A stretch of DNA of 58,385 nucleotides, filler included, from Sphacelaria rigidula (taxonomy: Eukaryota), in assembly GCA_964200075.2 (NCBI GenBank). It is 8 parts of 8 records of this genome, joined end to end, with 100 filler letters (N's around TTAATTAATTAA, not from the genome) between each part and the next. Parts side by side here need not be neighbours in the genome. Positions count along the whole stretch, not along the records: positions 21,934 to 29,144 come from CAXNAA020015946.1; 7 more parts are not named here. One strand, 5' to 3'. The first letter of the stretch is position 1. Every line of letters begins with the position of its first letter. The notes below the pieces were generated by a model. That model had not been told where the DNA came from and searched no databases. It saw only the letters and a program-made list of their open reading frames with translations. This document shows positions 4,511-52,002 of this stretch, one piece after another. Both the position numbers and the translations under genes were made by a program.

Positions 4511-5188
4511 NNNNNNNNNNCCAAAAAGACGCGTGGTCCAACTCCAAAATACTCAGCGAACCAAAAAAATTGGCCCCCCCCCCCCCCCCCTCCCTCCACA
4601 TCATACATGTTGCGAATGCGGTCGGCCGATAAAAATGCAATATTAAGAGTGGGGTGTGGTGCACAGAACATTCCCGCAATGATTCAGGAAAATCCGGCTT
4701 TGTCGGGAGCGAGAGGAAAGTTTGTTTTTTTCCGTCACACGTTCAGCCCCTTACCTTCTCCGGAACAAGTCCTCAGTCTCTCCCCTGGTACACATGTTGC
4801 ATTTTGGTATCGCTTTTGGACCAGCACCGCTGTACCACGTCCATTCTCATATGTAAAAAGAAAAATGCTTCAGTGTAATAGTCACACCCTCACGTTGCAA
4901 CGACATAAATCGGATAGTTCTCGGAACAGGAAAAACACAACTACATCTGTTGGGAATCGAATGTAGTTCCCTCTTCCCGCCATACAGCAGCTGGTCTAAG
5001 ATGCACCATGTAGACCACGCAGGCGCGGTGGCAACAATGATGTTGGCAGATCTTTCACCCATGAGATTCGGCGTACTTCTGCCGTCTACGGTAGTACCAG
5101 ATCCTGTCATTGTTCAGGATTTGCTGTTGAAAACTGCAAATGATCGGTGCTGCAGATATTGAGGCTGAGATAAAACTGGCGACACACG

Positions 5189-7211: not shown

Positions 7212-7311
7212 NNNNNNNNNNNNNNNNNNNNNNNNNNNNNNNNNNNNNNNNNNNNTTAATTAATTAANNNNNNNNNNNNNNNNNNNNNNNNNNNNNNNNN
7301 NNNNNNNNNNN
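7212..7311. other. Artificial 100-nt linker, first of seven (others at 14523, 21834, 29145, 36456, 43766, 51076)
   Basis: N44-TTAATTAATTAA-N44, with stops in all six frames, recurring after every 7211/7210 bp of sequence. Confidence 0.95.
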
Positions 7312-14522: not shown

Positions 14523-14699
14523 NNNNNNNNNNNNNNNNNNNNNNNNNNNNNNNNNNNNNNNNNNNNTTAATTAATTAANNNNNNNNNNNNNNNNNNNNNN
14601 NNNNNNNNNNNNNNNNNNNNNNGCCAACCGACGCCAACCCCATCGGGGGTCCGCCCCTACAACGCCGGGACGGAGCACGCCGGATTCTCGCCGACTGAA

Positions 14700-20960: not shown

Positions 20961-23142
20961 CTCAATCTCACGAATACGTTGTTATTGGTCGTTATCCACG
21001 GCATGCAAACATATTTTGGGAACCACCTTCACCGTACAAACGTACGTACTACGTTATTATGTAAGATCAGCTCCAAAGGTAACTTATTGGGCACACGCGC
21101 AGCTTTCATTGTGCGCAACGCCTTCTATACAATCGGGCGCCGCAACAGATGAAGGAATATGATGCGTTACTTTATTTCTCAGGGCTGAGGCCATATTTTT
21201 GGAAACTAACCTGTATTTACACAAATCTGAGGATTTCCTCCCGTTTACATGCAATTTGCTCCCGTGGATTGAGTCTTCGGACCCCAGTCCATTCGGCAAT
21301 GTTTTTCGGCTAGCTGTGAGAGAAGCAGATGAATCCTCAGATTCTGTGGGTGTTGATGTTTTGTATGTCATAAGTCACCTTTCTTCTCGGATCGAGTCCC
21401 TTGCTTCAACCCACGAAATCTCGACAAAGAGCCCGCCAACTTTCATCCTGAGGGGAACACCGAAGTTAATTGCCCAGGCCGTTTCTTTTCGGCATGGGGT
21501 AAATCCCCCTAAAACACTTCATTGGCGATTCAGCGCCTGTTCTTGCTGCAAAAAAGGCTTGGCCGATTGTGCCACTCTGAAATACTGACGGTGCTCTCGG
21601 AAGTGATTATTCAGGCGCAATTTCCCGAACGTTCGTACGCCTTGCTGGATCTTTGACCAGACCAGCGATTCGCCACAAGCCAAAAAGTGATATTTTTTCT
21701 GCAATGACTCTAGGGTTGTTTTGAAAAAGTCGAGAGAGATTTTGGCCTGAGCCAGAAGTAGTTCGGCAAAACGGCAAAAAACAACAAATTGTGAGAATTG
21801 AGGTTTAACTTCGAGATGAGGCTCAAGCCCAAANNNNNNNNNNNNNNNNNNNNNNNNNNNNNNNNNNNNNNNNNNNNTTAATTAATTAANNNNNNNNNNN
21901 NNNNNNNNNNNNNNNNNNNNNNNNNNNNNNNNNGAAGTTCCCCGACCTTTGTAACGGCGAAAGAGAAAGCCCCGTAAGCATGCCCCCAAGAACGCGCGCG
22001 CATCATTACGTACACCTCTTTCTAGCGGAAATCCTCGACCTCAATCTCTCCAAAATGCGACGACTTTGAGCTCGACGGCTCTATCAAGTATCCCGGAAGA
22101 AACAAAATCACATAGTTCTGACGGCACTACTTCTTCAATGGACGGCTCCAACCCCGCACATCCTGGATCCCCCTTTGACGGTGATCCTTGTCAACCAAAG
22201 ACGATCATTTACGAAATCGCCAATGACCGTGTCACACCTGGAAATAAAATACCGTCCACCCCCTCCTCTGATGAGACATCTGACCCACCGGCGGATCATC
22301 CGCCGTCCGTTTTTGCTGTCAGCCCCGCTGATCCTGACCAGTTCACCTTGCCGGAACACGGTCCGGAACTTGTCGGTGGCAAAGTGTCTGTAGATCCGGC
22401 CACTTTCACTACTTGCGTTGCGATCCATGCCGGCCCAAACGCTATCACGCCTACGAAATTCGTATCCTCGTTGGACAGCGGCAGTCCGCAAGCATTATTT
22501 CGATAATCAATATGGAAACACATGAAACAGACTGGCGCTGCTACTGCAGAGCTTGTGAAACCACCACCGAACCTCGCGTGTGGGGTGGTTTCGGTGGTTC
22601 TGCCGCGCCAGTGACGACACGAAAATCAATACGTCTCAGTGTACAGTTCTTTCACAACACCACTCAATCTGCCAGCCTGGCAGTCTAGGCATACGTTGTC
22701 CCCGACAGCATCATGCATCACGCCATATTATTGGGCAGAGACAGCTATTTGCGGTTTAATAAACGAACCTACCGCACGCTTCCACCACTAACGCCACATT
22801 CCACGCCGCGTGGAGCATTCGACCTCGAGCACTTCGGTACTCTTTACGGCGCCCTGGCTTATCGGAAGAATCCTCAAGCAACCGGAGCCGCTCACCACCT
22901 ACGATATAACGGTAGCGTAGGGTATTACACTCTCCGACGACCCCCAACTTCTTGAAGTTGCACTAGTTGGCCGAAATGGCATACCAGCACTTACGGGCCA
23001 TTATCTTAATGAAATATTACCCCGTATTGGCGCACCAGCCGACACAGAACATTTTGTGTCGGCGGGACAACAACTCCTACCTCTTACGGGTCATGCTAAC
23101 TTGGAACTCGGCGATGTTTAAGGAATCGCCGCTGCTCCCCTG

Positions 23143-25233
23143 ATGCACATCCCACTCGAGACGTGCGTCACAGAGCCTGCGGGACTAATACAACATTCCT
23201 CCTCTCCTTGGGCCTCGCCACTTGTGGTCGTCCCCAAAAACGATGGGAGCATACGCATCACCGTGAAGTATCAACAGTTGAACCGCGTCACTGTAGTCGG
23301 TAAAATTCCTATTCCCCGCATAGATGAAGTTTTCGACTCCTTGGGCGAAGGGAAAATATTCAGCACCTTCGACCTCGCTTCTGGATATTTTCATAATGCT
23401 ATACACCCTGACACAGTCCCACTGACGGCTTTTTGCACCTCGTCCGGACTCTATGAGTGGCTTCGAATGCCACAAGGCGCCGCCACTGCCACGGGATGTT
23501 TTCAACGCTTAATGCAACGCATCACCGAGGGCCTCGAGCGCATCATCATGTACTTGGATGACGCTATCGCTTTCGATGCCTCACCTATCGCACATATACG
23601 CACTTTACGAGAATTTCTTTCTCGCCTACGCACGCACGATTTGAAACTGTCTCCATCCAAAGCTCGCCTTGGTGCGACTGACTTGGATTTCTTGGGGCAT
23701 TCCATTTTGCCAGCGGGCCTGCATCCGGATACAAACAAAGTCAAGGCGATGACTGATTTGCCAATGCCAACTAACATTTCTCAACTTCGCTCATGGTTGG
23801 GCGGGCTATCCTACTACCGCAATTTTTTGCCGAATTTGTCTAAACGGATTCGACCCCTTACTGAGCTACTCAAGAAAGGAGCCGTGTTTCCTTTCACCAC
23901 CGAAATGGAGAATATCACCAGCCAACAACTTAAGACGCTTACCGAAAAGCCCGTACTTTGCTTTCCTGATTGGGAGGCAGTACAAGCTGGCTTCCGTCTT
24001 TTCCAACTCCACACTGACGCCAGCACAAACGGATTTGGAGGAGTTTTGAATCAACCTCAGCTTGATGGCTCTGTCCGACCCATCCTTTATATCAGCCGCG
24101 CTACCCTGCCCAAAGAGGCCAATTGGAGCTCGCTGGAACTGGAAGGCGGAGTAATCACTTGGGCCATTAAGCGCCTTCGACAATATCTGTTTCACGTGCC
24201 CTTCGAGATCTATACGGATCACGGAGCACTTGAACAACTCGCCAAGGTTGGTGAACACAACCCTCGTGTACCACGATGGTTGGAGTTTCTAACAGCATAC
24301 CAGTATACCATTAAGCACCGTCCAGGCAAAACCAACGGGAACGCGGATCTTGTTTCCCGCCTACCTCTACCGCCTACGGCCGCAGATTCCAGCCCGGCTT
24401 GCCGTTTAACGAAACCCGATGAACCCGGAATTTACGCGATCAGACGTTTATCAACGCCCGTCTACGCCCTCGATCTACAGTGCCCAGAAACCGGTATGCA
24501 TATGGGAGGACCTCGCCCTCTACCATATGACGCCGTCTTGGGTGGGTTAAAGCCCACTATCTTCAATTTTGTCGATTTTCGCACTTTCGGTACTCGCGCG
24601 AAACTCTTCGCGGAGACACCTACAGTCACCCACCTTATCTCCGACAACACGCGCCCCCGGTCTGCCGCCCGCACCACACCGAGTGCCCCGCCGCCACCAA
24701 CAACACCTTCAACCTCTATGAGCCACCCAGCACAAGTTCCACGGTTCAACACACAAAGCTCCGTGAAAACTTCTGCACCGTGCGCCACGCGCCGCGAACA
24801 ATCTTCGCCGCGCACTGATACAACCCCACCGCCAATAATGGCGCCGCTAACATCTCCTACCTCCGAGCACGGAACTGACGACTCGCTCCCGGGACAGATA
24901 TTGACGTCGGCATTTCTGCCCCGTCGCCTATTCCCCCGCCGCCTGCCCTACCATGTTTGGTCGGCTCGCCAACGGAAGGTCAACTACGCGAGTTTCTCGC
25001 CAGCTACTCCCACCGCGATTGGGCTCGCGAACAGAACGCAGAACCGCTTTGTCGCGCAGCCATCCGGTACTTACAACTTGACTGTCCAATCCCTTTTCCG
25101 TCCATACTTCTGGCCCCGGTTGGAACACTGCCACCACCAGTTATTTCTGACGTATACGAGCTCGTGCGTAAAGGCACCCTTTTTACTACGGATGAAGGCG
25201 TGCAACTACTCGCACGTCGGCCCACGCCCTTGA
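23143..25233 (+). pseudogene. pol: Gypsy pol: reverse transcriptase and RNase H
   Basis: 696-aa ORF with RMPQG, YLDD and TDAS motifs; shifts frame into integrase near 24960. Confidence 0.92.
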
Positions 25234-27162
25234 CAGGCGCAATTGCCGCCTCAACTACGGGACGCACCGCACGACTACTCAATGACGAACCAACGCGTAT
25301 ATATGTGCCATTATTAATGCGTCCCTGGGTCATGAAAGGCTGCCACACAGATTTGTCATGTCACCTTGGCGTCACCCGCACCCTCGCGCTCTTGGAACGC
25401 TTCTACTGGTGGGTTGGCATGGAAATTTCAACCCGCTTCTGGATTCGGCAATGCTTTAAATGCCAATCCCGCAGAACTTCACGACAGACGGTACGCTGGC
25501 CCGTGATCTCTATGAGACTCCCCGACGAGCCCGGCCACCTTGTGTCCTTTGACTACTTCGGCCCTCTCCCGACCACAGGTCGCGGCAACACCTACATCTT
25601 ACTCTTTACTGACCGCTTTAGCCGCCACGCGTCCATGTACGCGGTAACCGCCGCAGATTTCACTGCCGCGGGAACGGCCGACATACTGGTCCATGATTAC
25701 ATTAAGCACTACGGCTGCCCAAAGCGACTACTTTCAGACAATGGTCAGCAATTTTGTTCAGACCTCTCTGATGAGCTCTACAAGCTCCTGGGCATCCGCA
25801 AAATTGCCACGAGCGCCTACCACCCGAACGGTAATGGTGGTACCGAAAGAGTTAATCACACCATGGCTCAGATGCTCTCTATGGTCGTCAATGACCGCCA
25901 AAATGACTGGGACCTACACCTTGTTTGAGCGACACACGTTCGGCGGCCACCAAGGATTGGATCAGGATCAGCTATCCTACCACGAGCTAGCGCACGCGCG
26001 ACAACGCAAAGCGTTTACCCTCGTGCGCGAACAACACGCTATCAATGCCTCGCGCCTGGAGAGATCTAACACTGCTCTCCACAACCTCATGCACAAACGC
26101 CTTAACTGGAAAGTCGGTGATTGGGTTTGAATCTACAACAGCTTGTCGACCACCCGCCAAGGCATCAGCAAGGCAGCCAACGAAACAATGTTGAAGACAA
26201 AATTGTCCCTCAATTGGACAGGACCATTCAAGATCCTGACAGTCGGACCATCGTCATCATCACCGTATGAAAAACCCGTTGGGGACAAACTGCTCTATCT
26301 CGACTTGCCTCGCGACTTCCAGGGCAAAGACACCAAACTCCGCGTTTCCGTGCACAGATGCAAACCCTGCACGAACCCGCATGATACAAGCGACATGCTT
26401 AACTACCTGCCGGCCGGACTCACACAGTATGTTCTCAACAGCTACTCGACCAAGTCCCCGCCCTACCACGTTACAACCGACGACGTGGCGGAACAGCCCC
26501 TTCGGTTGGCTGTGTCCTCCATTTCCGGCCACCAGATAACCCGTGGTCGTGGAGGCAAGATCGCTGTCATATATAAGACACACTGGCACGGTCTTCGGGG
26601 AGCGTCTTGGGAACGCGAATCCGATCTGCAATTGCACCGTCGTGCAATCCTCCTTTACAGGGCGCAGTCCCAACATCTGCATCTTGCTCACAACAAGAAA
26701 TATCGCAACATGCGCCGTGGCGCAGCAGCCCGCGAACTTCACCGCAATCAGGGACTACGCTTTGTCGCTGATGGTTACGAACTTGTACCCTCCAAGACTT
26801 GTAAGACGAAGTTCTTCGCGAACCAGCGACTCCTGCCCAAGGGCAGCTACCTTTGGTTCAAAGGCAGCGACAACCTCTGATGGTTGGATCAGACCAACTC
26901 CGCTAACCTGGTTTCGGCCGACACATACATCGTGCGCTTCATCGATGACCCTGGACCCATACAGCTCAAGCTTCGGCCAGCGCTATACACCACCAGCCCA
27001 TCTGCGACACGCGGATCCTGGTGTCTCCAGCGCGTAAAGTCCAAAGGACTTCGTCGCGGTCTCCAGCGCAACATCGACCACACCCACGACGTCCACGCTC
27101 CCCTCTTTGAACCACGCTTTTTTGTCGCGACTGTTGTCCCACCCCTATTTTTTTTTCCGTGA
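24957..27162 (+). pseudogene. pol: Gypsy pol: integrase with GPF, chromodomain and Tudor-like tail (interrupted)
   Basis: H-x5-H...CFKC zinc motif, DDE core, WTGPFKI, YKTHWHGLRGASWERESDL; a single TGA at 26878-26880, after which the same frame continues to YIVRFIDDPG. Confidence 0.88.
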
Positions 27163-27364
27163 GCATTGTCTGCCCTCCCTTCTCCACCAGGATCCTCTTC
27201 TACGACACCACAATAGCGCGACCTACATCGGACGCCGATCAAGAACTACTGACACGACCGCTACCTACGACTACCGGAGCCATAGTATCCCCTTCATCTG
27301 GCGCTCGATCTCGTTGGATCATCGATTTTCAGATTTCCGATCTTGCAGTTTTTAGCACTTTTGG

Positions 27365-27612
27365 GTTTCCCCAGGTCAAAGCTCTGCTGCCTGTTGTACC
27401 TCTGGATTTCCCCAGGTTGGAGCTCTGCTCCCTGTTGTACCTTTGGCTTCCCCCAGGTCAGAGCTCTGCTCCCTGTTGTACCTCCCTGTTTTCCCCTGTC
27501 AACTTTTGCTAGGACGCCGAAGCAATTTGCGCTTCTTCATTGATCGCTAGAACGCCGAAGCAATTTGCGCTTCTTTATTGATCGCTAGAACGCCGAAGCA
27601 GTTGTGCTTCCG
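27365..27612. repeat. Two tandem arrays in the gypsy 3' UTR (3 x ~41 bp and 3 x 38 bp)
   Basis: TTCCCCAGGT..AGCTCTGCT.CCTGTTGTACCT x3 and GCTAGRACGCCGAAGCA x3. Confidence 0.85.
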
Positions 27613-27666
27613 CGTTTCGGAGCAGTTTTTTTCTGCTCCTCGAAGCAGTCTATGGGGAGACCGGAT

Positions 27667-28330
27667 TGTTGGTATGGGAATGTTAGGTACAGGATTGTTG
27701 GTATGGGTACAGGATTGTTGGTATGGGAATGTTAGGTACGGGAGTGCTCCTTTAGGTATGCTTTAGTCGCTCATGACTTTACGAGTGAAGAAAAACTTTA
27801 GTTTTCGCTGCTTTGAAGATAAATGCTCGCAGCTGTAATAAAGGTTGGTCTGGGTGGGTTAGTGTCATGAAGACGCATATTAGCCTGTTGATGCCGCTTC
27901 AGACCCGTTGTCGACTCTGGCTGTGGCTTGTTTTTGTTTCCGTAGACAAGGCTGCAGGTCGGTTCAGAGTTGGTCGGATACGAATGTGAACCTGTATAAT
28001 CACGGGGATGATACTGGATTTGGTCGCTGTCCCCACGACCAAAGCCCCCCCATCGTTCGCACTACCAACTGCTCCTCTACTGCTTTCCAGCAAAAGGAGT
28101 CTAACCATCGGTGAGACGTGTTGGATCGGGTTGTATTGATTGAGTGGATACTGGAGTTAGAATCAAGATGACCAAGGAGAAGTGAAGAACCTATGTGCGT
28201 GAAACCTCGTCTGATATTTGGATGCTGAGCAGATCACACGGTATCTACAAGTTGTAGCAGCCTGACGGTTGTACACTCGCCTGCCAAGCTTGTGCCTTGG
28301 GTTGCAAGCTGTGTCCTTGCATTATACTAC
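27667..28330 (+). repeat. Putative 3' LTR (right boundary uncertain)
   Basis: TGTTGG start just after the GGGGAGA purine tract; TGTTGGTATGGG is triplicated at the start; no matching CCAACA end or 5' LTR available. Confidence 0.45.
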
Positions 28331-28344
28331 CGCTTGCTCTTCAT

Positions 28345-28490
28345 TACGCATTTTACTGATACCTGAAAACTGATTATTGCCCTCAACTCACGAAAAAAAA
28401 AACTTCTGGTGTTTCTGTAGCTTCTTTTTCATGCCCTATGCACTGTCCATACCAAAGTTTACCCTCCAACTCTAAATATTGGCCGGCGCA
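28345..28490. repeat. Foldback family C half copy
   Basis: TGAAAACTGATTAT..CCCTCAACTCA...TGTCCATAC...TCCAACTC..ATATTGGCC matches 58225-58355. Confidence 0.65.
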
Positions 28491-28859
28491 TTCGCCTTCT
28501 ACAAACCCGATCGGTGAATTTTCGGAACAGTATTTCACAGGCCACTTACCTGCCCACGTATGGTTTTTGTGTATTGAAATATTGTGTGGGCCCTCGCAGG
28601 GGCATTCTTAACAAAACTCCACTTAAAACACGGAAAAAAAAATGAAGAAAGAAAAGGTAACAAGCTGTTGTATTTTTATTTCCATTATGCACTACACACG
28701 CGGCCATTCGGCTACCTTGTTGAAGAATTTCCAAACGCCATCCTCGGTTCCGTCCGTTTAAAAATCCCCCCTCGAGGATCTTGGGTACTCGTAATCCTCT
28801 AGAGGACTTTCAATCTTGGGGCCCTCCAAGGTCTGTGTCAATATTCAAATCCCCTGGAT

Positions 28860-29144
28860 TGTTATTGAGGGCACAACTGCTATGGAAAAATCTGGAATTT
28901 TCACTGCCTCCGCTATTCGACATAAAATCCTGACTCCAAATTATTGGAATCGTGCAAAAAGGATTTATTTTGACAGCAGAGGCTGTACAAATCCCATATA
29001 CACTTGCAGATTATATTAATTCACCAGAAGCTGTCCGAAATAAATCCTCATTTTTCCCCCCAACACCTGAAATAGGAGTCATCCTACGATAGGGGGGGGG
29101 TATTTGGTTGCACGAAAAAAGAGGCTCATAAGTGTGTCAGACAT
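28860..29144. repeat. Dispersed repeat with an inverted copy at ~51176-51430
   Basis: GAGTCATC.TACGAT..GGGGGGGGTATTTGGTTGCACGAAAAA.GAGGCTCATAAGTGTG is nearly identical to the reverse complement of 51176-51246. Confidence 0.7.
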
Positions 29145-29244
29145 NNNNNNNNNNNNNNNNNNNNNNNNNNNNNNNNNNNNNNNNNNNNTTAATTAATTAA
29201 NNNNNNNNNNNNNNNNNNNNNNNNNNNNNNNNNNNNNNNNNNNN

Positions 29245-34032: not shown

Positions 34033-34235
34033 AATGAGATGGAGAGCTGGTGCTGTAATAGGGGTGCACAAAAGTATTTCCTGAGCTTCAAATTGTTGAA
34101 AGCTCTCCATCTCATTAAAAAATAAAAAACTCGAAGAATATGTGAGAGCACGCCACGGTGAGCATTGCAATGGGGTAGGGATATCCCGAATGAGTTGTCC
34201 TGATCCATATCCGTTTTAATTTTAATTTCTTTATT

Positions 34236-34521
34236 TGTCGCACTTTTGAACCCCTCCCCGTCTTCGGGACGAGTCCGTGATCTCAAGTGATCAATATGTC
34301 TTTGCATTTTGCTCTCGCGAATTGGATCATGACCATCAGCACTCCCGCACCGCGTCAACTCACGTCAAACAAACTCAGCCGACTACTTTGTTTACTCACG
34401 TTCTCGCGCTTTCCACGGTGGAAATCAGACACCACGAAGAAAAACACCAACACATAGGGAACCGAACCCTCGGTCTCTTCACCCTAATTGCGATAGTCGA
34501 ACCATTACACCACCGGGTCGC
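34236..34521 (-). mobile_element. tRNA-derived SINE family 1
   Basis: Head GCGACCCGGTGGTGTAATGG, tail GGTTCAAAAGTGCGACAAATAA. Confidence 0.85.
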
Positions 34522-36415
34522 GTGTGTAGCTCCTGACTGGGGGAGTCCTAACTGCAGGAGTCCCTCAATGACAAAGATTCGGGCCCAGATGTACAACACA
34601 TACCGTACGTAGCATGGGTCTTGGGACGACCCGATGTCCTGATGATTCGAATCACCACCGACAAAGTGAAAATTCCACCACAGTCCCGCCATAACGCGTG
34701 ACACAAGCCCGATCAGACCCGCAACATTATCCTCATCAATTCATACTATTGCGATTGTCACGATGACGATTCTGTCACCAACACCCATATTTTCATCACA
34801 TTTTCCCCAAGTAATACTTAGTGGTACGCTCCTTGCACTCCGTGACCACGGGTTCGAGAGATCGAGCTAAGGTGGCGGATATAATAATATTATAATAATA
34901 TAATAATGATAGATAGTTAAAGAAATGCGGCTCAGTACGGTAATGATGACCCCCGGTCGCATGCTCGAGGCAGTAGAGTTCACCACTTGGTCGGGTCGAA
35001 CTTTCCCGGAATTTTACTACTTGATTTGAGTGTGAAAATCGATGTTCGGATCTTTAGTGGCACAGACAGTCCCCAGTGCTCCTATCGTGCGCAGAACGCG
35101 TTTTTGTCTGAGTCGGCGCTGCAGTCGCCGAACTAAGGTCTACCAACGCCACACTTTGCCTAGGGAACACTTTACATCCCCCGCGCCCGAGGGTTCTCGG
35201 TATGCCTTAGACTACTGGGGTGATTTCGAGAAAATATATTTCCGATAAATTTCTTGTCCGATCAAGTGATAAACTGATCAGTAGACCCAAAGAACTGAAC
35301 GTAAACAATGGTTGGTACTCGATTTTACTTGATTTCAGAACGAAGAAAGTTCGGAGAAATATATATGATCTGGGGCAGGTTAGCAGTGGTGAGCAGCAGA
35401 CCCAGGTCGTCCAGAACGTATTTTCGTCCAGGACCGGCTCAAAGGCATCGATTGGAGCTCTGGCAACGCACACTTTGCGTAAAGAACACTGTGCACCCCC
35501 CCTGCCCGAGGGTTCTGGGTATGCCTTCATCGGGGTTAGGGTTAGAGTTCTTTAAAAAAAAAAAAATCGGACATCGTTAAGGGCCCGTACAAATTCAGGT
35601 ACCTTTACTTATGGGACAGAGGAAGTACATTTCTTTACCCTCGCTCGGGGACCCCACAGGGGTCGACCTGCACCCACAAGAATTATACTTCATCTGGATC
35701 CACGAAATCATGGAGGATAGAACGCCCCACTCGCCTTGGCGTGGCTGCCTGTAATTACTGTGCATTATATCAAGGCGGTGGCTTTGCAGCCGCGCCCGGG
35801 TGATTTTTTCAATTAGTAATCTAGTCACTGACAGTCAGTTACGGGGAAATATCGACAGGTTCAAATCCCGACATATGCCTGTGGCATTATGAGCAGAAGA
35901 GGGTGTGATATATTATCCGTGAGGGATGAAAAAAGAAAACATGAAGGCACGAGCAGCGAAATGAAATTCGAGAAGTCTACGAGGTGGTACGGGGAAGTAC
36001 TGATCCAATCCTTGAGTATCAAAATGTCAGGAGGCAGATAGGTACTGGGAAGAGATGGAGCTGACCTCTCGACTCTTCCGGCCTCGTTTGAGTGTATGCG
36101 AGGGGGGCGGGGGGCGTGTGTATTCGAGACATTGCATGCCGTAGTCATACGGCCATTCACCTGGCATCCCTTCAGAGCTGGGACTGGAGAATGCCGGGTT
36201 TTCACCGGACCAGGATCGCAACCACCAAGCGCCAAGCGCCGTGACGTGTTTGGCGAGTCGCACGAAGGGTAACTTGCATGCCACTGAGCTTGTTCGATCC
36301 GAAGCGTACTAATTATCTTGCATATGGAAAACAGCCTCGAATTACTTGCTTCATTGTCTGGTATCGCCACTTCCAGAGACAGCCTCGGGTTACACCCCCC
36401 CCCCCCATGGGTGTA

Positions 36416-36455: not shown

Positions 36456-36555
36456 NNNNNNNNNNNNNNNNNNNNNNNNNNNNNNNNNNNNNNNNNNNNT
36501 TAATTAATTAANNNNNNNNNNNNNNNNNNNNNNNNNNNNNNNNNNNNNNNNNNNN

Positions 36556-43400: not shown

Positions 43401-46360
43401 GGTTTGTTCGATTCGGCTTGCAGCCTTTTCGCGAGCTTTTCCGTCGCCTCTTACCATATTCCGGTGGAGTTGTCCATCGCCGCTTTTCACATATTGGCAG
43501 GCTAGTCTGTCGGAGCTCGCCGCCTGGGCTTTTGCCTGGGCTGTTCCATTGCCACCTACGTGCTTTCGGGAGGCTTGTTCGTCGTCTCTTACCATATTTC
43601 GGTGGGGTTGTCTATCACCGCTTTCCACCTGTTGGTCGGCTGGTCTCTCGTAGCTCGCTGTCTTTTGGCGGGCTTTTCCGTCGCGACGGATCATGTATCG
43701 GCGGGCACGTGTTACGTGACGATGAGCATCTTCATCGTCAGCTACCACACGTCACACGGCTTCTCNNNNNNNNNNNNNNNNNNNNNNNNNNNNNNNNNNN
43801 NNNNNNNNNTTAATTAATTAANNNNNNNNNNNNNNNNNNNNNNNNNNNNNNNNNNNNNNNNNNNNTTGCTTTTGAATGGTAGCCTAAAATGAGTTTGCTT
43901 TATTCTGTGGTATCGCCACTTCCAGAGACAGCCACGTCTTATACACTACCTCATGGGTGTCTCACCAATAGCTGGGGTGGATCAATGACGACGATGCGAT
44001 TTCCGCGCACTCGAAGTCAAGCAGAAAAATGGACAACGAGCGTTCTCCACACTATTGGGCTGAGAGTAGAAAGCACAGCATCGTTGTAGGTTGGCACTTC
44101 CACTGTGCTATTGATCTCGCTGGTGGAACATTGCGGCAATCTACACGGAGTGATACGGGGAGGGGGGGAAGTTCCGCTTCACTCTGCCAGCTACCAGTGG
44201 TGCGTGCAACAGCAATAGCTATTCTTGCACTATACAAGTACGATTACGGAAAGGGGCAGGCAAGGCCCTTTCGCTGCCGCGTTGAGCATGCAAAGCCCCG
44301 CATTTTCCCCTTTTATGTTTTTTGTGGGTGTCTTCTTGGGTGCCAATTTGCGAAAGGCTGGACAGAGCGATTGAAGAAGTTCTCTGCCCACGGGTTCACC
44401 ACAAGAAGCTAATATAATACCGTCTGCCGGGCTAATCCTCGAGTGTTTTACTCGTGAATTTCGTACATTTTCAAAGATGGCATTTGTTTTGAGGACAAGG
44501 TTTTCCTCAATAGTTATGCCGAAACCCGAGACTTGGCACCCCCAGTATTGCGGGCAGTCGGCATTCATACACTCCTAAAATCAAGTCGGCTGCACTGCAA
44601 GCATCCAGCGACAGACAGATAGAGTACGTTTTCGTCAGCGATATACTTTTGTGTTTTTCGCTAAACTCGGTACGCTGCCGCAGCGACGAACAAAATATAG
44701 TGGCCGTATTCCAAGGACTGCATATACGCATAATATTTTACGTATTTAGTTGCATCCTTGACGTGCAAGATATACCAGGGCTCTCTTTCCTGCATCGTTA
44801 CACACGCACCTGCGTAGATGACAGCCCTCACAACAGTCTTGTTGCTCCGTCAGCTAGGTCGATGAGCATACGATCACGGAGTTTTTGAGCCACGGACCGA
44901 ACCCTCGCCGGCTGCACCGCCGACGCAGCAAATTCTCCTTCGCTTGTCAATGCTGCTGCTGGGGAAATGTCATCGGCGTTCCGTGCTGTATCTGACATTG
45001 CCGATTCCAATGGCATGGCGTCGTCGGCTGCCCACGGCGCAGGCAGTTCAACCCTTGTAGTACTTGCAGCCGTTCCAACCAACGATGTAGCATCGGTAGC
45101 CCATTTTTCGGGATTATTGGGGATGACAAACGCGGAAATTGGCGCTAGAACTCGACCGGTTCCTGTACCAGCGAACACAAGTAACGGCCGGGTGATAGGG
45201 GGGTAGGTAGCCGTGCGCACGAAAAACGAACATTATGGTCTCATCAGAAAGGGGAAACTCGCGAATTCATGCGCAGTCTAGAGCAAGCCATCACTTGATA
45301 AAGTTCTCGCCGATCCAGGATTTCGGCACTCGCAGGCAGTGTTCAGAATAACTGAAGCCTAGTTCCCTTGCACCTCGCCAATAGCCAGCGTGCTATGTTG
45401 GCGTCTAAAACGTGTGCGGTATCACACCGTGTTCACCTGTCAAGAAAGCTTCCTTCCACAAGGATACTCGAGATAGGTCAGGATAATCTAGTCGTACGGG
45501 GATGTCCTCGCATTGACATGCCGAGAGACACTGCTCCCGCATACTGCCCTGCAGCACCCTGGACGGCGCGGTGCACACAGTGCCGTCTTCCTCCACCACG
45601 AAAATGTTGGAGATCAAACCTGGCAACAGACCGAAAAAGGCGCTTAAGCTTTGCGTTGTGGCGTGACGCCAACACATGAAAATAGGCTTGACGCCTACGG
45701 GAGATTGGCTGATTGTCTTTGAAGGTGAATATGACGGCAAGTCAACCTCAAAACACTTAACGGGAACAGATAACATTGATATGCCACTGATTGAGGCGTA
45801 CTAACGGAACCGCCTAGGGGGACCTGCTACGCATGCAGTATTTTATTTTTGTCATGACAGCGTTGGAGGCAGTGTGCTATTATATTGTTAATGAGGAACC
45901 CAACTTGCTTTGCGTCACAGGGATGCCATCACGCTGGGTAAGTGCAAACCAGACCGCCGAAAGGTGTACATCCATAGGTTTTTCGTGGCTCGAAAAGTCT
46001 AGATTATACGCTTCCCTGGTACCTTCGAGCACAACCCTCCTGGCCGGTGTATCATTGAGCGGTCCCGCCTCCGTCAGGGCAACTTCTTGGACTCCGACCT
46101 TACAAGACGATGAGGAGGCAATGAAGGGAGTGGGCGACAACATTTGAGGAGAATAATCGGTAGGGCTGGGTACTGGCGCAGTCAGCCAGTATATTATATT
46201 CCGCGGGTAACTTGGGTCCCGGGCGAAGCAGAGGCGCCCCGCTGGAGGCGCATTCTCACGCTATTTGACTTCCCCAGAGCAAAGAGATACTATTCGGCTT
46301 CACGTGCGGCTCAATTAGATGGGTTCCCGTTGAATAATGAGGCGTGATGGTGGAACGTAC

Positions 46361-50470: not shown

Positions 50471-51927
50471 GCACACAACCGAATTCTACTGAAAACAAAG
50501 GGCGAATGGTACGTACTTTCCGCATCACAACGTTTACTTATCTGCATAGCACAGATAAATGAGTGAGACGCAACTTGCGATTAAAATACAACACAGGGTA
50601 AAAGGCTTCACGTGTTACCGATGGAGATGCCCAGCTGTTTGGTTTCCTCGTTCCGCATGACGTAGCATGAAAATGAGCGTGCGAACGTCAAGCGAGTCCC
50701 GTATCTAAACCCTTCTACCGTGTCGACCCTTAGCTTGACGCTTAACAAGCGACCTGTTGGGGTGGGGTCGGAATAGGGGCCGGAGTTGCTTCCGTCGGTA
50801 TAGAGACGACACCTACAAAAAAAGTTGATTACCGCTCGTGCACCGCGTGCCATGCTATTTGTGTATTTACCACAACCAGCAGCACATCGATGTCTCGCTG
50901 CCTCGCTGCAGCAAAGCAGTACCAGTGATCGCGCGTGCAGTACATACAAGGCCGCATGTAGGCAAGAGGCATGTTATATAAACACAACATCATGTGGGCC
51001 GGCACGAACCGACCTCCACCACAAGCGCACCGCACCTTCCCCCGACATTGGCCGCAGCGTGCGGGCGGGGAGGAGNNNNNNNNNNNNNNNNNNNNNNNNN
51101 NNNNNNNNNNNNNNNNNNNTTAATTAATTAANNNNNNNNNNNNNNNNNNNNNNNNNNNNNNNNNNNNNNNNNNNNTGCCTGGCACACTTATGAGCCTCGT
51201 TTTTCGTGCAACCAAATACCCCCCCCCCATATCGTACGATGACTCATTGGTTATATTGCGTCAATAGGTTCCACACAGGGCACAGCATATTTCTTTACAA
51301 CTGAATCTCGTATCCAGCGTGTGAAACTTTCATCAGAAAATCTACAATTTCTGAATAGCTTCTCAAGACGAGTATCTACTCTCCAAATACTCGACAAGAC
51401 ACGGAAATTTTATCCTGAAATATTATCACCGACCATGACTCCGATTTCATTTTCACGAGGAGCATCTCCGCAACTCCCATTTTCTTCAATGAACCCAACT
51501 GTAGTATCATAGGCACCTTCGCTGGGGAGACATGATCTGCACCCCTCCACGGGGCTTCAATTACGGTACAGAGGGGGTAGTGTTATACCGTGCACCCGTG
51601 CTGCAAATGCTAGACACACTGAACGCGAACAAGAAAGTATTGGCGAGCACTACTGCATGTTTGGGTGTCTCACTGTTGTCACTAACCCAGAGCAACAAAA
51701 ATAAAATCGAAAAAACTGTCTCACATCTGAACACACGCTCAACTTACAAGCAAAAATGTCTTCATGTGCGATTATTTCACGTATTTTCGTCAACTTGCCT
51801 CTGCCGCACAAAAACAGCATCATCAGTCGTCAGTTCGCGCCTCCCTCCCCTCCCTTTCCCCCCCCCCCCACCACCACCACTTCAACACAGAAGACAATCA
51901 TTCATTCTTCATTTTTCATTTTTTTAG

Positions 51928-52002
51928 TTGTCGCACTTTGAACCCCTCCCCTTCCTCGGGACGAGTCCGTGGTCTCAAGGGATCAACCCATCTCCCCCCG
52001 GT
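51928..52002 (-). mobile_element. SINE family 1 3' fragment
   Basis: TTGTCGCACTTTGAACCCCTCCCCTTCCTCGGGACGAGTCCGTGGTCTCAAGGGATCAACCCATCTCCCCCCGG. Confidence 0.8.

Follow-up and report, generated by a model that had tools for sequence, protein, structure and literature searches.

What lies beyond the catalytic core of the integrase at this locus, and could it influence where the element inserts? The locus lies in a window (the whole stretch of DNA that was analysed) of 58,385 bases from Sphacelaria rigidula (GCA_964200075.2). The window is made up of eight pieces of about 7.2 kb with spacers between them (N44-TTAATTAATTAA-N44); it is not one continuous locus, and adjoining pieces are not necessarily neighbours in the genome. 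The element in question sits on the + strand of one 7.2-kb piece (positions 21934-29144). Taken jointly with the whole reading of the integrase tail given below, this piece is rather likely to be a degraded copy of a high-copy brown-algal Ty3/gypsy-type long terminal repeat (LTR) retrotransposon. In intact relatives, the integrase appears to continue past the GPF motif into a C-terminal module of about 190 residues, which would consist of a chromodomain with Leu-Trp-Leu at its cage positions, a helical linker that is basic and conserved, and a barrel of the Royal family that comes closest to PHF1 and PHF19 Tudor domains. Fusions with reader domains are the clearest way in which retroelements choose insertion sites, and we know of no readers of the unusual chromatin code of brown algae.

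The integrase frame continues past an in-frame stop codon

Translation of the frame at 26131-26880 gave the GPF motif of the integrase C-terminal region (26221-26229, + strand, read as NWTGPFKIL), then LRLAVSSISGHQITRGRGGKIAVIYKTHWHGLRGASWERESDL from position 26506, a basic stretch and LPKGSYLWFKGSDNL, up to a TGA at 26878-26880. Past this codon the same frame reads WLDQTNSANLVSADTYIVRFIDDPG and stays open until a TGA at 27160-27162. The GPF motif is typical of Ty3/gypsy integrases. A preliminary description of this DNA had proposed a Gypsy integrase with a GPF motif, followed by a chromodomain-like stretch, a basic linker and a frame continuing past a TGA, and this succession was borne out by the translation and by the order of the Pfam domains.

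Relatives of the tail were sought with phmmer, run exhaustively against 1.84 billion representatives, with the translation of 26473-27100 as query (X at the TGA). The query matched 466 proteins at E<=1e-3, 166 at E<=1e-10 and 8 at E<=1e-30, and a word-index search returned two proteins that span the whole tail, P0002 (76% identity, E 1e-100) and P0003 (52%, E 4.2e-57). With 466 representative proteins matching, the tail stretch is far beyond what chance would give. Many of the phmmer matches were fragmentary, as gene calls on repeats would be, and the named members all came from brown algae (three gene models of Ectocarpus sp. CCAP 1310/34 and one of Nemacystus decipiens). An uninterrupted order of zinc finger, catalytic core, GPF/Y, chromodomain, linker and barrel was found in P0161 (779 residues, with precomputed PF00665 and PF17921) and in the metagenome locus L001 (a 598-residue frame with the integrase-chromodomain-tail order, without an upstream gag). 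The family alignment used throughout comprised 148 rows, namely the window and 147 relatives (P0002, P0003 and the listed phmmer matches); P0018, P0073, P0078, P0079 and P0082 were left out. P0079, a repeat protein among the 150 matches listed, looks spurious and was excluded from the alignments. Between 2,608 and 2,869 contig pieces per DNA-type run (organism A / algae metagenome runs) fell on 25900-27200 at >=85% identity, and because thousands of pieces per run map to this region, the family must be highly repeated.

The TGA at 26878-26880 (+ strand) is the second in-frame stop of the tail and falls in strand 2 of the predicted barrel, at the first Trp of the family motif DGLWWLG. Trp occupies this column in 87 of the 104 relatives with a residue there (Arg in 7, Leu in 3, Gly in 2, Cys in 2, others in the rest). 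Base 26880 is G in the contigs of other copies in three coded sequencing runs, at depths of 29664.6/29739 in X1 (44 contigs), 26812.5/26904.3 in X2 and 26101.4/26364.3 in X4. The first in-frame TGA, at 26128-26130 (+ strand), also lies in a Trp column (GDWV*IYN in this copy, GGWVWVYN or GDWVWIYN in relatives), and base 26130 is G in nearly all of the depth of other copies (68595.6/68660.4 in X1, 48 contigs). Judged by the other copies, TGA replaces TGG at both in-frame stops of the tail frame, and since relatives carry Trp and other copies read G, both TGAs are private to this copy. The earlier suggestion that the stop inside the second domain is a mutated TGG is in line with these counts. Could the frame nevertheless have stayed open by chance, or does the protein really end at the stop, with the Tudor-like motif a coincidence? 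Nothing but the stop itself and the missing Pfam matches speaks for this, whereas the continuation is kept in hundreds of proteins with Trp at the TGA column, recurs in open frames and in other genomic copies, and folds with high confidence in the models. We regard the explanation as extremely improbable, and a chance open frame past the TGA was rejected on the 466 matches, the Trp column and the G read in other copies.

Conservation within the module was measured as mean pairwise identity among eight unbroken relatives (L001, P0161, P0007, P0005, P0003, P0009, P0015 and P0002). It amounted to 62% in the chromodomain, 48% in the linker and 49% in the whole Tudor-like unit (54% in its barrel core), and to 66% in the integrase C-terminal region, a value from only 3 pairs with enough coverage. 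Going by these identities, the module is about as conserved as the neighbouring integrase sequence. The last part of the open frame (27070-27162, + strand) is not conserved: homology to relatives stops near 27090, tblastn alignments of relatives terminate at 27078-27114, and the depth of related contigs drops after about 27130. As none of the eight relatives compared extends beyond query position 200 (positions 200-229 are covered by none of them), the frame from about 27090 to 27162 is considered to lie outside the conserved protein.

The first domain is predicted to be a chromodomain

A model of the window's 209 residues was built with AlphaFold2 (AF2) from the 148-row alignment. The two-domain stretch reached a mean predicted local distance difference test score (pLDDT) of 87.7 and a predicted template modelling score (pTM) of 0.78. 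The first domain (26506-26664, + strand; residues 12-64, pLDDT 90-96) was modelled as three strands (14-24, 30-38 and 44-48) and a helix (49-64), the arrangement expected of a chromo fold. The VIA structural search with residues 9-68 returned Chp1 (Z 8.4, root-mean-square deviation (rmsd) 1.6, 53 of 55 residues), HP1 (Z 7.5) and Polycomb (Z 7.1), and Foldseek against the PDB returned chromodomains at probability 1.00 (E 0.04-0.07). A search of the PDB sequences with the family profile placed the chromodomain of MPP8 on the same domain (three sequences, E 0.38-0.41), and Pfam Chromo appeared below threshold in 17 of the 148 family members (E 1.7e-4 or weaker; the one score seen was 17.1 bits). 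On the predicted model, the chromodomain fold is well supported.

The usual ligands of chromodomains are H3K9 methylation and H3K27me3, and the aromatic cage of the domain follows the pattern [Y/F]xVEKI...W.G[Y/F]. The cage positions were located by this pattern together with the profile alignment to the MPP8 chromodomain, and are occupied by L12, W38 and L41, where a three-aromatic cage has Tyr or Phe, Trp, and Tyr or Phe. The Leu residues that had been reported at the first and third positions are therefore present. In the family the three columns contain Leu in 38/67 (the others mostly Pro, Val, Ile and Ser), Trp in 76/88 and Leu in 64/91, respectively. Decay of this copy was rejected as a source of the Leu-Trp-Leu cage, since Leu-Trp-Leu is the family consensus; of the 'degenerate' chromodomain of the preliminary description, the incomplete cage stands and the degeneration does not. 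The same cage pattern is described for the C-terminal integrase chromodomains assigned to group II in plant chromoviruses (Tekay, Reina, Galadriel), which are without the first and third cage aromatics, keep the central Trp and were known only from plants as of 2013 (PMC3605345). Unlike the family studied here, these elements have no second reader-like barrel. A 'group II'-type cage, reported in 2013 only from plants, would thus be found outside plants.

A basic linker and a predicted Royal-type barrel follow

The chromodomain is followed by a conserved basic linker (26665-26772, + strand), which contains a long helix in the model (residues 75-92, 26695-26748; consensus YRxMRxGAAxRELxR). We merely conjecture that this helix may contact DNA or the nucleosome surface. 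The Tudor-like unit (26773-27069, + strand) comprises, in the AF2 model, a short strand and a helix (102-115), a five-stranded barrel (26848-27036; strands 126-129, 138-144, 151-156, 162-166 and 183-188) and a short helix. Both domains had been located correctly in the preliminary description, with extents that were too short. A second AF2 model, of the tail alone of the intact relative P0034 (95-row alignment), showed the same strand pattern with a pLDDT of 86.7 and a pTM of 0.76.

Foldseek searches with the P0034 tail gave the PHF19 Tudor domain as the best match (E 0.03, probability 1.00, template modelling score by target 0.62-0.66, 25% identity), followed by Spindlin, PHF1 and the DNMT3A PWWP domain, and then by the Tudor domains of TDRD1, TDRD3 and SND1. 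In the VIA search, PWWP 6kco was found at Z 5.8, the Tudor domains of TDRD1, PHF19, Spindlin-4 and RDM15 at 5.7, and the Agenet domain of AGDP3 at 5.6; PHF19 aligned over 56 of 57 residues with an rmsd of 2.1, as a five-stranded SH3-like barrel. By their entry titles, 37 of the 50 VIA rows for the tail belong to the Royal family (Tudor, eTudor, PWWP, Agenet, chromo-barrel, SAWADEE and BAH) and 13 are other small barrels. The family profile matched seven of all PDB sequences at E<=10, the best three being PHF19 Tudor chains, a weak match (E 0.031-0.04) that spans LP.G..fWYKardgLWWLGKI......sYIVRFLDD, while a single-sequence phmmer search with P0003 gave no PDB sequence at E<=10. Together, the models and searches support a Royal-type SH3-like barrel nearest to the PHF1/19-type Tudor domains, with Tudor, PWWP and Agenet left tied by structure. 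The Tudor-like domain proposed earlier thus holds as an SH3-like/Royal barrel (predicted by AF2, Foldseek and VIA), and its Tudor label, as against PWWP or Agenet, is not supported by the tied structure scores or by Pfam. In the ESM Atlas all scores were below 0.9; the whole protein led to Chromo clusters and the tail to clusters of Spin/Ssty, Tudor, SAWADEE and Agenet, which are consistent with this reading as leads but do not count as evidence.

Aromatic residues of the barrel are conserved in the family, as the preliminary description had anticipated: W128 in 85/122, Tyr or Phe at 129 in 83/119, W136 in 87/104, W137 in 75/100, Tyr or Phe at 152 in 82/107, F156 in 76/104 and W183 in 61/79, together with D158 in 77/103. 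Lack of an SH3-like fold, a conserved stop and unconserved aromatics had been named there as grounds for abandoning the Tudor-like domain, and none of the three was found. The Tudor pocket of PHF1 is described as W41, Y47, F65 and F71, with D67, S69 and a leucyl patch of L45, L46 and L48 (PMC7492083). In the PHF19 profile alignment, the PHF1 residues Y47, F65 and D67 correspond to W137, F156 and D158, all conserved in the family, and the leucyl patch to L135, W136 and L138, W136 being the residue lost to the TGA in this copy. W128 and the Tyr or Phe at 129 lie two to three residues before the position of W41 and might substitute for it. As far as the alignment goes, the barrel pocket is half conserved.

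The likeness to PHF1 and PHF19 (readers of H3K36me3 and H3tK27me3; PMC7492083) extends to the five-stranded barrel and to the best profile and Foldseek matches, and their motif DGL(L/Y)YLGKI...V.F.DD aligns with DGLWWLGKI...VRFLDD of the family. The two differ in that identity is 20-25% (E about 0.03) and that the family adds an N-terminal strand and helix and, ahead of strand 5, a long loop. PHF1 and PHF19 carry the domain in a Polycomb-like protein, the family in a retrotransposon integrase.

A PWWP-type barrel, which like other PWWP domains would bind DNA along with methylated H3K36, H4K20 or H3K79, would account for part of the structural neighbourhood. PWWP 6kco ties with the Tudor domains in the VIA search (Z 5.8 against 5.7), the DNMT3A PWWP is among the Foldseek matches (E 0.058-0.14, 23-24% identity), and we take the barrel sequence F-W-Y-K ... 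L-W-W-L-G ... V-R-F-L-D-D to resemble the PWWP pattern. The profile search of the PDB, on the other hand, returned PHF19 Tudor chains and no PWWP at E<=10, and the sub-threshold Pfam matches are to Agenet and SH3 families and not to PWWP. PWWP domains also carry a C-terminal helical bundle, whereas in both models the barrel is succeeded by a single short helix. At strand 2, the place of the P-W-W-P-type motif, the barrel reads L-W-W-L. A PWWP-type barrel is therefore improbable, and the PHF1/19-like Royal barrel is retained as the preferred description.

Several results weigh against reading the tail as two histone-mark readers. A Pfam scan of 26131-27162 gave no match even at E<=1; the gathering score of PF00385 (25.1 bits) was reached neither in the window nor in any of the 148 members, and in the tail the members gave only sub-threshold matches (SH3_VIII-1_N in 13 and Agenet in 6), none of which reached a cut-off. 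Foldseek returned no PDB match at E<=0.001 with either model. The top VIA rows for the tail are the non-Royal SH3-like domains of TraI (Z 6.8 and 6.1), and a VIA Z under 8 can reflect merely a common arrangement, the barrel values being 5-6.8. Given the sub-threshold Pfam matches, weak Foldseek E values and middling VIA Z scores, it is the fold class that is supported and not membership of the Tudor family. The positions of W41 and F71 of PHF1 hold Gly or Ala and Pro in the family, so that two of the four cage aromatics are kept. With one of three aromatics in the first cage and two of four in the second, classical methyl-lysine binding by either domain is doubtful.

These incomplete cages bear on another explanation, in which the barrel is an SH3-like module that does not bind methyl-lysine (its partner being DNA or RNA, the nucleosome surface, a host protein or integrase itself in multimerisation) and the chromodomain is an adaptor. 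Besides the non-reader SH3-like top row of the VIA search, the barrels of KOW, Pelota and Ski2 lie within 1 Z of Tudor. Moreover, Ectocarpus is reported to be without H3K27me3 and H3K9me1/2/3, which chromodomains usually bind (PMC12477816). The incomplete cages, along with a linker that is strongly basic and conserved, make this a serious alternative. It is set against two conserved Trp, one Phe and one Asp where one half of the pocket lies in PHF1/19, a DGL-W-W-LG motif that mirrors DGL-L-Y-LG of PHF1 in both pocket and leucyl patch, and the histone readers that make up most of the structural neighbours. On this evidence we consider an adaptor role unlikely.

The Tudor-like unit was also observed outside integrases. 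It terminates three long non-pol proteins, P0073 (828 residues), P0082 (612 residues) and P0078 (626 residues), in none of which Pfam families were found. P0073 and P0082 are homologous over their full length (29% identity over 672 columns, E 5e-62) and consist of a coiled-coil-looking N-terminal part, an Arg/Ser-rich middle and the barrel, without a chromodomain; P0078 has a different N-terminal part, then chromodomain and barrel. When relatives were sought with the non-pol part of P0073, nothing but P0073 itself was returned. These proteins could be host genes, gag-like open reading frames or deletion derivatives. In P0018, a gene model of Nemacystus decipiens, TIMP and WSC domains (Pfam) are joined to the family's Tudor-like tail, probably because the gene prediction is a chimera that took in a piece of a retrotransposon.

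A possible role in the choice of insertion sites

Chromodomains of chromoviruses steer integration, and LEDGF/p75, a separate host protein, tethers HIV integrase to chromatin through its PWWP domain. By analogy with chromodomain-bearing elements, the tandem chromodomain and Tudor-like module probably steers where the element inserts: it would tether the integrase-cDNA complex to chromatin, and the tethering would bias the insertion sites. The analysis shows the architecture, the predicted folds, their conservation and the private stops; that the module binds chromatin, directs insertion or reads a given histone mark we infer from such analogies. In the chromodomain-directed integration of MAGGY and Tf1-type elements, a Royal-family reader likewise links integrase to marked chromatin, in MAGGY by a single chromodomain with a canonical cage; the family has two reader-like domains in cis, neither with a full cage. 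A survey of fusions between readers and transposable elements across eukaryotes cites MAGGY and features Chromo and PHD fusions (10.1101/2021.11.30.470311).

Two kinds of target are plausible by analogy. A gene-body mark of the H3K36me3 type would fit the PHF1/19 likeness and the abundant intronic transposable elements reported in Ectocarpus. Repeat chromatin with H4K20me3 or H3K79me2, as put forward in the preliminary description, is the other. Ectocarpus is reported to have negligible 5mC, and H3K79me2 and H4K20me3 to go there with repeats and low expression (PMC12477816), so the background on brown-algal chromatin assumed in the preliminary description is found in print. Brown algae are reported to lack methylation of H3K9 and H3K27 as well as 5mC. 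In a more far-reaching version, chromodomain, linker and Tudor-like barrel would form one supradomain that reads a non-canonical chromatin state (H3K36me3-type gene bodies or H4K20me3/H3K79me2 repeats), with the basic helix as an anchor to nucleosome or DNA and with the cassette portable onto the non-pol proteins P0073, P0082 and P0078. We hold this to be rather unlikely; if true, it would amount to a portable chromatin-docking module common to elements and possibly host genes.

Is the family already known? A 2025 curation of Ectocarpus transposons describes four Gypsy lineages, all with reader domains: three have putative C-terminal chromodomains and the fourth, Gypsy-10_Ec32, a C-terminal Tudor domain (PMC12477816). 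Gypsy-10_Ec32 is there called the first Tudor-bearing transposable element, its domain having been found by InterProScan or HHpred; it has a homologue in Tribonema and many deletion derivatives. The lineages with chromodomains are stated to be unrelated to chromoviruses or Chronos (PMC12477816). Gypsy-10_Ec32 resembles the family studied here as a Ty3/gypsy element of brown algae with a Tudor domain fused behind the integrase at the end of Pol, and its authors see in it a chromatin-reader fusion for targeted insertion (PMC12477816). By description it differs in that only the Tudor domain is reported, whereas here a chromodomain precedes the barrel. The tandem is given no mention in the passages and tables of that paper that the analysis covered, and no further Tudor or chromo-Tudor integrase came up in our literature search.

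It is possible, although on balance doubtful, that the family is this very lineage, Gypsy-10_Ec32 with its Tribonema homologue, and that its chromodomain merely went unmentioned. The published C-terminal TUDOR domain and deletion derivatives would fit (PMC12477816), as would the occurrence of the family in Ectocarpus gene models. Against such an identity, the paper puts chromodomains on three lineages and the Tudor domain on a fourth, with the tandem unmentioned in the parts named above (PMC12477816), and the chromodomain is the best conserved part of the family's module; for the latter reason it is just as possible that the family belongs to the three 'chromodomain' lineages and that its barrel went unnoticed there. 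The idea of a brown-algal Gypsy element with a Tudor domain has thus been published before, and the tandem of barrel and group-II-like chromodomain seems to be either a new variant or a feature of a known family that had gone undescribed. What was reported in 2025 for a Gypsy element with a Tudor domain would in this way be extended to a tandem architecture. As a conserved, high-copy integrase with two reader-like domains, the family would offer a probe for chromatin recognition in brown algae without H3K9me or H3K27me3, and its insertions a natural experiment on the recognition of heterochromatin or gene bodies.

The host element and the defects of this copy

Upstream of the tail, Pfam identified RVT_1 (reverse transcriptase; 23230-23706, E 2.6e-21, residues 37-195) and RT_RNaseH (RNase H; 24001-24300, E 2.9e-26, residues 294-393) in the frame 23122-25233, and Integrase_H2C2 (zinc-binding; 25308-25478, E 4.4e-13, residues 144-200) and rve (integrase catalytic core; 25524-25826, E 8.8e-10, residues 216-316) in the frame 24879-25928. 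The order of these four domains on the + strand identifies a Ty3/gypsy-type pol. The reverse transcriptase/RNase H frame differs from the integrase (H2C2, rve) frame, and the integrase is itself broken at 25918-25922 (+ strand), where the reading frame shifts and nothing corresponds to about 32 residues of P0161 (353-384): by tblastn, residues 11-352 of P0161 align with 24897-25922 in frame 3 and residues 385-769 with 25918-27090 in frame 1. With its frame changes, about 32 codons deleted and a private TGA at each of two Trp positions, this copy is dead and the module cannot be made from it.

No direct repeat flanking pol, as expected of LTRs, was found within the piece 21934-29144, and a 5' LTR is impossible in it, since the piece begins (21934) inside the element. 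Frames upstream of the reverse transcriptase (21955-22955) contain LDSGSPQ and ILLGRDSYLRF, which look like both halves of an aspartic protease of retroviral type; a Pfam scan of these frames was without match. Downstream of the pol frame, two tandem arrays were seen at 27357-27495 (3 copies, 41-nt period) and 27660-27757 (2 copies, 49-nt period); they may be part of the element's 3' untranslated region or LTR.

Other features of the window

Dispersed repeats of about 90-140 nt (families D1-D3) occur in several pieces, at 393-624, 1277-1615, 34205-34528 and 51897-51999. ARAGORN found no tRNA gene in the whole window; one dispersed repeat unit has, on the reverse strand, a GGTTCG..CC-like box and, from its sequence, looks like a tRNA-derived short interspersed nuclear element. 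The spacers between the pieces lie at 7212-7311, 14523-14622, 21834-21933, 29145-29244, 36456-36555, 43766-43865 and 51076-51175, and three more runs, of 10 Ns each, lie at 4511, 15764 and 38142 of the window.

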